Made by a program: the position numbers and the translations under genes
The notes under the pieces: model-generated
Told to the model about the DNA's origin: nothing
Database searches by the model: none
The model's input: the letters and a program-made list of their open reading frames with translations, nothing else
Shown here: piece after piece, positions 1,617-1,715 of the stretch
Layout: each line of letters opens with the position of its first letter
Position numbering within the stretch: the stretch's first letter is position 1
Origin: a virus
Taxonomy: Duplodnaviria > Heunggongvirae > Uroviricota > Caudoviricetes
Strand: one strand, 5' to 3'
Virus record (IMG/VR): IMGVR_UViG_2693429549_000013
Length of the DNA: 11,242 bases

Positions 1617-1644
1617 TTGATTTTTCCGGAATCTGTGGTAAATT
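1617..1644 (+). promoter_or_regulatory. candidate late promoter pR' (-35 TTGATT, 16-bp spacer, -10 TAAATT) with likely Q-utilisation/pause region just downstream
   Basis: TTGATT at 1617-1622 and TAAATT at 1639-1644, 6 bp after the Q stop. The -10 hexamer and the downstream AACAATGGG resemble lambda pR' (TAAATT ... AACGATGGG) as I recall it. Confidence 0.6.
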
Positions 1645-1650
1645 CGTCAT

Positions 1651-1715
1651 AACAATGGGCGTTTTATGCCTGACGTTAGAAGAGTTTCTACAACCCGCCG
1701 CCGAGCGGGTTTTTT
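1651..1715 (+). ncRNA. candidate short pR'-tR' transcript (lambda 6S RNA / StxS-like), about 65 nt
   Basis: Interval between the predicted pR' start site and the tR' terminator; no ORF. By analogy to lambda 6S RNA and the StxS small RNA described for Stx phages. Not verifiable from sequence alone. Confidence 0.4.
1692..1715 (+). terminator. rho-independent terminator tR'
   Basis: 7-bp stem AACCCGC (1692-1698) / GCGGGTT (1705-1711), 6-nt loop, followed by a T-run. Confidence 0.65.

Follow-up and report, generated by a model that had tools for sequence, protein, structure and literature searches.

Directly 3' of the Q antiterminator gene in IMG/VR virus record IMGVR_UViG_2693429549_000013 (Caudoviricetes) lies a short stretch of DNA, positions 1617-1715, that separates Q from a run of genes in the same orientation. 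What is this stretch for, and what is the short RNA that could be made from it? All positions given here are those of the window, that is, the whole 11,242-nucleotide stretch of viral DNA that was analysed.

In the standard order of a Q-dependent cassette, Q is followed by the late promoter pR', a sigma-dependent pause element, a terminator, and then the late genes (PMC9388147). The sequence of 1617-1715 makes it very probable that this is such a unit, namely the late-gene regulatory cassette of a lambdoid prophage with a lambda-Q-family antiterminator. The short RNA released from it would then be primarily a by-product of the late-gene switch.

Predicted elements between Q and the late genes

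The product of the Q gene matches Pfam PF03589, the Q-lambda family (PMC9388147), with E = 6e-55 and a score of 183.7 bits (cutoff 26.7). It also matches the lambda Q chain 7UBM_Q (PDB 7UBM) with E = 1.5e-40, in two blocks comprising residues 1-113 and 182-273. Because these blocks flank residues 114-181, the latter can be read as an insertion. The 68 inserted residues sit at the start of the zinc-ribbon 'arm' of lambda Q and contain two extra CxxC pairs. They give a sub-threshold match to the DnaJ CXXCXGXG domain, which is a weak zinc-finger signal. In alignments, related insertions can be found in phi80 Q and in Qin-type Q proteins, and none in lambda Q or P22 Q. The identity of the window's Q is 28.8% to lambda Q, 29% to P22, 41% to phi80, and 54% to mEp237, the tblastn matches to lambda, P22, and phi80 being full-length.

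The elements that follow Q are collected in Table 1. A first-pass annotation, made from the sequence alone, had reported the unit TTGATT-16-TAAATT, the motif AACAATGGG, and an intrinsic terminator at 1692-1715, and had described the antiterminator as a long zinc-finger form. Reading the sequence again places all three elements exactly there, and the description of Q fits the insertion with its two CxxC pairs.

Table 1. Features of the predicted cassette and its surroundings, in window coordinates.
Feature	Position	Strand	Basis or remarks
Q antiterminator gene, 273 aa	790-1611	+	lambda-Q family, PF03589
-35 hexamer TTGATT of late promoter pR'	1617-1622	+	sequence; begins 6 nt past the Q stop codon
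16-nt spacer TTTCCGGAATCTGTGG	1623-1638	+	presumed Q binding element, core about CCGGAAT (1626-1632)
-10 hexamer TAAATT	1639-1644	+	same letters as the lambda and P22 pR' -10; followed by CGTCAT
Predicted transcription start, +1 = A1651, first A of AACAAT	1651	+	P22 mapped start
Predicted sigma-dependent pause element AACAATGGG	1651-1659	+	-10-like AACAAT (+1 to +6), discriminator-like GGG (+7 to +9)
Conserved initially transcribed region, +10 to +28	1660-1678	+	conservation across genera
A/U- and purine-rich linker AGAAGAGTTTCTAC	1679-1691	+	differs between clades
Intrinsic terminator tR'	1692-1715	+	7-bp stem (5 G-C), 6-nt loop, run of 6 U
Predicted short terminated pR' transcript, A1651 to T1715, 65 nt	1651-1715	+	from the other features
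Next terminator-like site, past the 65-aa ORF	2020-2042	+	terminator scan
Holin gene	10491-10784	+	PF04971 match

The -35 hexamer aligns with TTGACT in lambda and P22 and with TTGCAT in phi80 and Qin-type cassettes; the phi80 record labels the equivalent hexamer as the -35 of pR'. The spacer ends in an extended -10 motif, TGn (T1636, G1637). By themselves, the two hexamers agree with the consensus at 8 of 12 positions and are passed over by a promoter scan with a threshold of 9. Sites scoring 9/12 or better are not commoner in the window than in shuffled sequence (11 versus 13.0 expected). The two hexamers alone are therefore no better than chance and prove nothing.

The composite motif TAAATT-N6-AACRATGGG is another matter. 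It occurs a single time in the window, with 0 mismatches, and is expected 0.05 times when 2 mismatches are permitted. As far as sequence can tell, this composite motif is more than a coincidence, and the comparison with relatives is decisive.

The start of the transcript can be placed by comparison with P22. In the P22-pbi record, the 5' nucleotide of the late RNA is annotated at locus position 1202, which is the first A of AACGATGG. Since the -10 hexamer, the six bases, and the motif are spaced in the window as they are in P22, +1 is assigned to the corresponding A. Sequence and homology together predict a sigma-70 promoter, pR', directly 3' of Q.

The distance of AACAATGGG from the -10 hexamer also equals that in lambda and P22, and the motif is predicted to be a sigma-dependent pause element at the start of the transcript. 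Sigma region 2 reads -11 A and -7 T of a -10 element most specifically, and their equivalents in a pause element are +2 A and +6 T. The +1 to +6 repeat shows this base pattern again, at the corresponding positions. Further downstream, the lambda pause signal includes the GGG at +7 to +9 (PMC5001585).

The pause itself may be expected near +16/+17 (A1666 and U1667, followed by G1668). Here U17, G18, and G8 agree with G-10/Y-1/G+1, the elemental pause pattern. Such a pattern has a role in sigma-dependent pausing (PMC5001585). The region from +10 to +28 is far better conserved across genera than the Q gene and contains a conserved CGTT at +24 to +27; in the lambda group, the CGTT occupies +20 to +23. 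The conservation of the region may be due to constraints on the paused complex.

In the terminator, AACCCGC (1692-1698) pairs with GCGGGTT (1705-1711) around the loop CGCCGA, and the T-run extends from 1710 to 1715. An independent terminator scan picks the same hairpin and gives it 7 pairs (5 G-C) and the tail TTTTATGACT. The hairpin has a folding energy of -11.4 kcal/mol and is part of the minimum-energy fold.

The cassette in related phages and prophages

Relatives were gathered by a search for Q in species genomes and from fetched reference phages. The Q proteins of the cassettes compared are only 29-55% identical to that of the window. After Q, a common plan can be found: a -10 hexamer, six bases, AACGATGG(G) from +1, and a GC-rich hairpin with a U-run. 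This plan is kept in lambda, P22, phi80, mEp237, K-12 Qin, O157, and E. albertii, as well as in seven further genera (Atlantibacter, Scandinavium, Mangrovibacter, Kosakonia, Phytobacter, Buttiauxella, and Entomohabitans). When 18 diverse cassettes are aligned, seven columns never vary (-12 T, -11 A, -7 T, +1 A, +2 A, +6 T, and +8 G), and three others, +5 A, +7 G, and +9 G, almost never do. The -10-like repeat reads AACGAT in 16 of these 18 deep relatives and family-wide, and the AACAAT of the window is a minority allele.

The first terminator hairpin with its U-run ends between +54 and +74 in all relatives except lambda, where it ends at +193. In a few relatives, the strongest hairpin chosen by the script is a second, tandem terminator farther downstream. 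At least 10 distinct terminator stem sequences occur at a like position, and it is therefore the structure and the position that are conserved, not the stem sequence.

The best-known member of this class is the pR'-qut-tR' region of lambda, the source of 6S RNA. It has in common with the window a PF03589 Q, the -10 hexamer TAAATT, the N6 spacing, and AAC(G/A)ATGGG from +1. The logic of a constitutive, short, terminated transcript is also the same, and the promoter spacer of the window is presumed to hold a Q site as well. Lambda reads TAAATT-TGACTC-AACGATGGG, the pause motif being AACGATGGG. There are several differences. Lambda has a TTGACT -35-like element between the -10 and +1, whereas the window does not; the lambda spacer, TATTGAATAAAATTGGG, is 17 nt long and differs from the 16-nt spacer of the window; lambda Q lacks the 68-residue zinc-finger insertion; and the lambda terminator yields an RNA of 193-194 nt instead of one ending at +65.

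Closer in length are the transcripts of P22 and phi80, both of which have Q proteins of the lambda-Q family. The P-late/qut/t-late region of P22 (gene 23) gives a short terminated RNA of 59 nt as against 65 nt in the window, and pR' of phi80 (gene 17) gives one of 74 nt. The phi80 pause motif is AACGCTGGG, and phi80 resembles the window in the long insertion of its Q. In both phages, the terminator stems and linkers are unlike those of the window. Their records support the plan by annotation: that of P22 marks qut and t-late, and that of phi80 marks pR', the Q site, and the terminator.

An example from the E. coli chromosome is found in K-12, downstream of quuQ (ydfT) in the Qin prophage. The architecture is the same, positions +1 to +30 are about 80% identical, and the terminator is of the CCCGC type. 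This cassette reads AACGATGGGCTTTGTATACCCGACGTTAAG, and its predicted RNA is 63 nt long (NC_000913.3 1,642,422-1,642,360, minus strand). The Qin Q has 250 aa and is 40% identical to the window's Q. The promoter differs, with TTGCAT, a 17-nt spacer, and TAAAAT. The K-12 record as fetched carries no annotation at the Qin cassette, and a literature search on quuQ, ydfT, or Qin pausing found nothing relevant.

The binding site of Q can be considered in the same way. Lambda Q binds between the -35 and the -10 (PMC9388147). In the window, the spacer between these hexamers is almost invariant among close copies. It is common to mEp237 (TTTCCCGAATCTGTGT) and unlike that of lambda. Within it, TCCGGAA resembles TCGCGGA, which the phi80 record marks in its spacer as the Q site. 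By its position and its likeness to phi80 and mEp237, the spacer is presumed to be the Q binding site.

These comparisons bear on three proposals of the first-pass annotation. The lambda-like pR'-tR' layout has the support of homology, through the PF03589 Q, the shared plan, and the annotated P22 start, which coincides with the first A of the motif. The proposed transcript of about 65 nt is of ordinary size, as 54-74 nt is the norm for the family and lambda, with 193-194 nt, is the outlier. The suggestion that Q might engage a site differing from that of lambda is reasonable for the sequence recognised, since the spacer is unlike lambda's, but not for its location.

A mechanism can be proposed in which every step is modelled on lambda, P22, and phi80. 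Sigma-70 polymerase would recognise TTGATT, the 16-bp spacer, the extended -10 TG, and TAAATT, and would start RNA at A1651. AACAAT with GGG would then serve as a second -10-like site, which sigma-70 would rebind, causing polymerase to pause at about +16/+17. Without Q, polymerase would escape the pause and terminate at 1692-1715, the RNA of about 65 nt would be freed, and the downstream genes would stay silent. With Q, the protein would bind its site in the promoter spacer, approximately CCGGAAT...TGG, and would load onto the paused complex. The polymerase so modified would pass tR' and many later terminators, and the methylase, tRNAs, sialate esterase, and lysis genes would be expressed.

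The surroundings of the cassette are as follows. RusA lies upstream of Q. Downstream, on the + strand, come the 65-aa ORF, a DNA methylase gene, tRNA genes, small-RNA loci, a sialate esterase gene, and a P21-type holin gene. The late and lysis genes 3' of the cassette (methylase, tRNAs, sialate esterase, and P21-type holin) all have the same orientation. Terminator-like sites are frequent in the window (29 versus 11.5 expected), and many of them lie on the + strand, in the interval from Q to the lysis genes. A Q-modified polymerase would need to read through the site past the 65-aa ORF and through many further + strand terminators.

Of 5,426 complete E. coli genomes, 2,394 (about 44%) carry the block of 126 bp at 1600-1725, mostly beside an annotated antitermination protein. 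In the genome records examined, no promoter, terminator, or RNA is annotated at the position of the cassette. The cassette, unannotated and common in E. coli, belongs to a textbook class and departs from that class in no respect.

Recognising such a cassette is useful for annotation. It marks the point at which the late genes of a prophage would be switched on, the start of the late operon, and it predicts which genes would depend on Q: here the methylase, the tRNAs, the small-RNA loci, the esterase, and the lysis genes. The type is among the commonest prophage regulatory elements in E. coli. The short constitutive RNA, if made, would occur in many strains, both laboratory and clinical, and K-12 would be among them.

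Other readings of the short RNA and its cassette

An RNA released at a late-gene switch may acquire a function of its own. StxS is a small RNA from the pR'-tR' region of Stx1 and Stx2a phages that acts as a regulator (PMC7547250), as the first-pass annotation had noted; on this point its account of the literature is right. In concept, StxS is like the window RNA, being a constitutive transcript that begins at a late promoter and, in lysogens, stops short of the late genes (PMC7547250). It is a 74-nt product of RNase E, derived from a longer transcript by cleavage at +173, and is linked to a clade of 144-aa Q proteins (PMC7547250).

Homology between StxS and the window RNA was considered and rejected, as the only part in common with the Sakai Sp15 region 3' of Q is a terminator-like hairpin of 24 nt. 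A linkage through Q was rejected likewise, the window's Q being a PF03589 protein of 273 aa and not a member of the 144-aa clade. StxS is analogous, not homologous, to the window RNA.

HnrS (EcOnc10/11/12) is a second candidate that was compared, a 66-nt small RNA encoded in multiple copies by prophages (PMC13502914). Its length is similar to that of the window RNA, it has an intrinsic terminator, and it originates from lambdoid prophages (PMC13502914). Identity was rejected by position and by one motif. EcOnc10 is located in Sakai Sp12 at 2,234,239-2,234,287 (+), between the Rz endopeptidase gene and the DNase/terminase genes, on the strand opposite the late genes and not beside Q. The window does not contain CTTCTAC, the HnrS motif complementary to the region of the hha ribosome site.

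StxS does set a precedent for by-products of pR'-tR' that turn into regulators, and its authors predict more cases (PMC7547250). By analogy, the 65-nt RNA could also be a trans-acting regulatory small RNA that binds Hfq and has targets in the host or in phages. This reading is unlikely on present evidence. Points in its favour are the GC hairpin with six U at the end of the RNA, together with a purine stretch, AGAAGA. RNAs that bind Hfq typically have A-R-N repeats and a terminator hairpin with a U tail. The RNA is also very widespread, with copies in K-12 Qin and in Sakai Sp6.

Set against this, the conserved part of the RNA, +1 to +28, is the part whose conservation would be expected from a constraint on pausing. 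Beyond +28 and up to the terminator, the sequence varies between clades, and no separate conserved seed is visible. The two predicted 5' hairpins of the RNA are not kept in relatives. The fold of a 69-nt stretch is no more stable than those of shuffled sequences (z = -1.43). A search of Rfam 15 with 1617-1715 gave no family at its gathering threshold; the best scores below threshold were 21.8 of 41 bits for Trp_leader and 13.5 of 50 bits for isrK. In a search for duplexes with translation starts in the window and with hha, none beat shuffled sequences, the best for hha having p = 0.053.

A crosslinking screen for Hfq in Sakai might seem to bear on the question, as none of its Hfq-bound orphan (EcOnc) peaks is at the Sp6 copy, NC_002695.2:1,554,209-1,554,273 (+). 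This screen kept only peaks antisense to coding regions or more than 100 nt from them, and skips sites such as this one. Because the RNA lies 40-104 nt from Q, inside the excluded zone, its absence from the Hfq list is uninformative. A role as a small RNA is possible but unsupported, the observations neither supporting nor excluding it.

A bolder form of the idea is somewhat less probable still. It holds that the RNA of about 65 nt is an abundant, constitutive, Hfq-binding small RNA with host targets, found next to lambda-Q antiterminators in some 44% of the complete genomes of E. coli. If it were true, the polymorphism at +3, +4, and +11 described below would reflect selection that tunes either the pause of the late genes or the activity of the RNA.

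A different doubt concerns whether the switch still works in this prophage. The region downstream is rearranged, with a 4,057-bp duplication and an IS3-family element, so that the late operon may have been disrupted. The cassette could then be a relic, in which the promoter and terminator persist and antitermination by Q has been lost through the pause variant, changes in Q, or disruption of the late operon. The minority allele of the pause element would agree with this, as would the IS3-family element, the duplicated methylase-tRNA block, and a truncated esterase fragment downstream; moreover, the arrangement of the window is found in no complete E. coli genome of the collection. Other observations make such a decay improbable. 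The reading frame of Q is intact and 99-100% identical to many copies, and the promoter, spacer, and terminator are the same as in common haplotypes. AACAAT retains the invariant +2 A and +6 T and is one step nearer to TATAAT than AACGAT is. A complete esterase gene and the lysis genes are still present downstream.

It is very improbable that the hexamers match by chance and that the hairpin merely terminates the Q (early right) operon. Hexamers that stay below the scan threshold and promoter-like matches at chance frequency would allow it, and the terminator lies 81 nt past the Q stop codon. However, the sigma-contact positions in the -10 and in the +1 to +9 repeat are invariant beside Q proteins as divergent as those compared above, and the spacing that equals a mapped start, like the rarity of the composite motif, also speaks against coincidence.

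Least credible of all is a leader-peptide attenuator, for which an AUG at +5 opening a 22-codon frame through the terminator and the weak match to the Trp leader model could be cited, and which was rejected: the AUG belongs to the conserved pause motif and lacks a Shine-Dalgarno sequence, the length of the frame differs between relatives (2 codons in lambda and mEp237, 6 in P22), and the polymorphic +11 freely changes the first base of a codon (V/F/L).

Variable sites and a module boundary

The late-gene cassette remains the preferred reading, and two side observations can be added to it. The first is a recurrent polymorphism at the start of the transcript. It was studied in 72 near-identical copies, comprising 56 haplotypes over 929 nt with 109 variable sites. 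The two most homoplasic sites in the 929 nt are the tri-allelic +3 (1653) and +11 (1661), which require 14 and 11 parsimony steps. The best sites within the Q gene require 9, 8, 7, and 6. Position +4 (1654), which is tri-allelic too, requires 5, and 80 of the 109 variable sites require one. On near-identical backgrounds, the pause element can read AACGAT, AATGAT, AACAAT (as in the window), AACTAT, AAAGAT, or AATAAT. In a second clade, variation recurs only at +3 (4 of 72 copies), and not at +4 or +11.

The second observation is that the terminator hairpin forms a shared border at which phage modules have been swapped. Just past 1717, phages that have the same Q begin to diverge. From the other side, phiP27 and Stx2a_1447, which have other upstream genes and a different antiterminator, are homologous to the window from 1691/1692 onward. 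A near-identical hairpin is also located 3' of Q in Sakai Sp15.

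The terminator hairpin and the cassette in other genomes

On sequence comparison, the predicted terminator hairpin of the late-gene control cassette (1692-1717) is an island common to exchangeable phage modules. Phages that carry the same Q diverge from the window directly to the right of this hairpin, and from there they run straight into the tRNA genes. Conversely, in phiP27 and Stx2a_1447, which have other upstream genes, homology to the window starts at the first base of the hairpin. A near-identical hairpin can also be found in the Sakai Stx1 prophage Sp15, where it lies directly after Q and upstream of the terminator of StxS, the pR'-tR' small RNA of Stx phages.

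E. coli K-12 MG1655 and O157 Sakai each have a copy of the cassette, and both copies are unannotated.

A conserved CATGAT(N2) element directly precedes the -35 hexamer in lambda, in P22 and, across several genera, in the Qin-type cassettes. The window's clade lacks this element, and there the promoter adjoins the Q stop codon.

Recurrent change in the predicted transcript

Three positions of the predicted transcript, +3, +4 and +11, are tri-allelic. A comparison of 56 near-identical haplotypes spanning Q and the cassette puts +3 and +11 first and second for recurrent change, with 14 and 11 parsimony steps respectively; +4 requires 5, and any other site at most 9. Six alleles of the pause element exist side by side. 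The AACAAT of the window is a minority allele, and AACGAT is the form kept in distant relatives. In a second clade, only +3 of these three sites shows recurrent change. The changes at +3, +4 and +11 may stem from neutral drift, from tuning of the pause or from local hypermutation.

Duplication and small genes downstream

Downstream of the cassette, a direct duplication flanks an IS3-family element. The repeated material comprises part of a methylase gene, three tRNA genes, a small-RNA locus and the 5' end of an esterase gene; the second methylase copy is without its 5' end. This arrangement of duplication and insertion element is found in none of the collection's complete E. coli genomes, the best matches among which cover 77% of the window within about 7.1 kb.

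The two sets of tRNA genes are identical. Because related phage records name the three genes ileZ, argN and argO, the 'Met' call for the CAT tRNA is doubtful, and the gene probably encodes a lysidine-modified isoleucine tRNA.

Running opposite to the late genes is a 111-aa ORF with a match to NCBIfam NF007393, the anti-adapter protein IraM family (162 bits; cutoff 121). IraM, an RssB anti-adaptor, stabilises RpoS. The name IraM is also among the PGAP gene names in related prophage regions.

Three copies of the STnc100 small-RNA family (Rfam) are present, with scores of 124-161 bits where the threshold is 47; the last of them faces a convergent terminator on the minus strand. This resembles the convergent small-RNA 'dyads' located between pR' and the lysis genes in EHEC prophages (PMC4104026, PMC7873438).

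Coordinates of features (window positions unless an accession is given)
Feature	Position	Strand	Detail
Tri-allelic sites	1653, 1654, 1661		+3, +4, +11
CATGAT(N2) element	just upstream of -35 hexamer		relatives' post-Q loci L022, L023, L017 and others
Cassette copy, K-12 MG1655 Qin prophage	NC_000913.3 1,642,422-1,642,360	-	after ydfT/quuQ; predicted RNA 63 nt
Cassette copy, O157 Sakai Sp6	NC_002695.2 1,554,209-1,554,273	+	after ECs_1524; predicted RNA 65 nt
tRNA genes, two sets of three	3283-3532, 7340-7589	+	anticodons CAT, TCG, TCT
Duplicated block	2378-2677 = 6435-6734		offset 4057
Duplicated block	4175-4393 ~ 7612-7830		
Duplicated block	5030-5169 ~ 8555-8694		
Methylase, copy 2	6382-7299		
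IS3-family element	5210-6366	-	
IS3-family orfB	5210-6028	-	
IS3-family orfA	6064-6366	-	
IraM-like ORF	4444-4779	-	
STnc100 copies	4229-4418, 7666-7855, 8133-8342	+	
Convergent terminator	8371-8350	-
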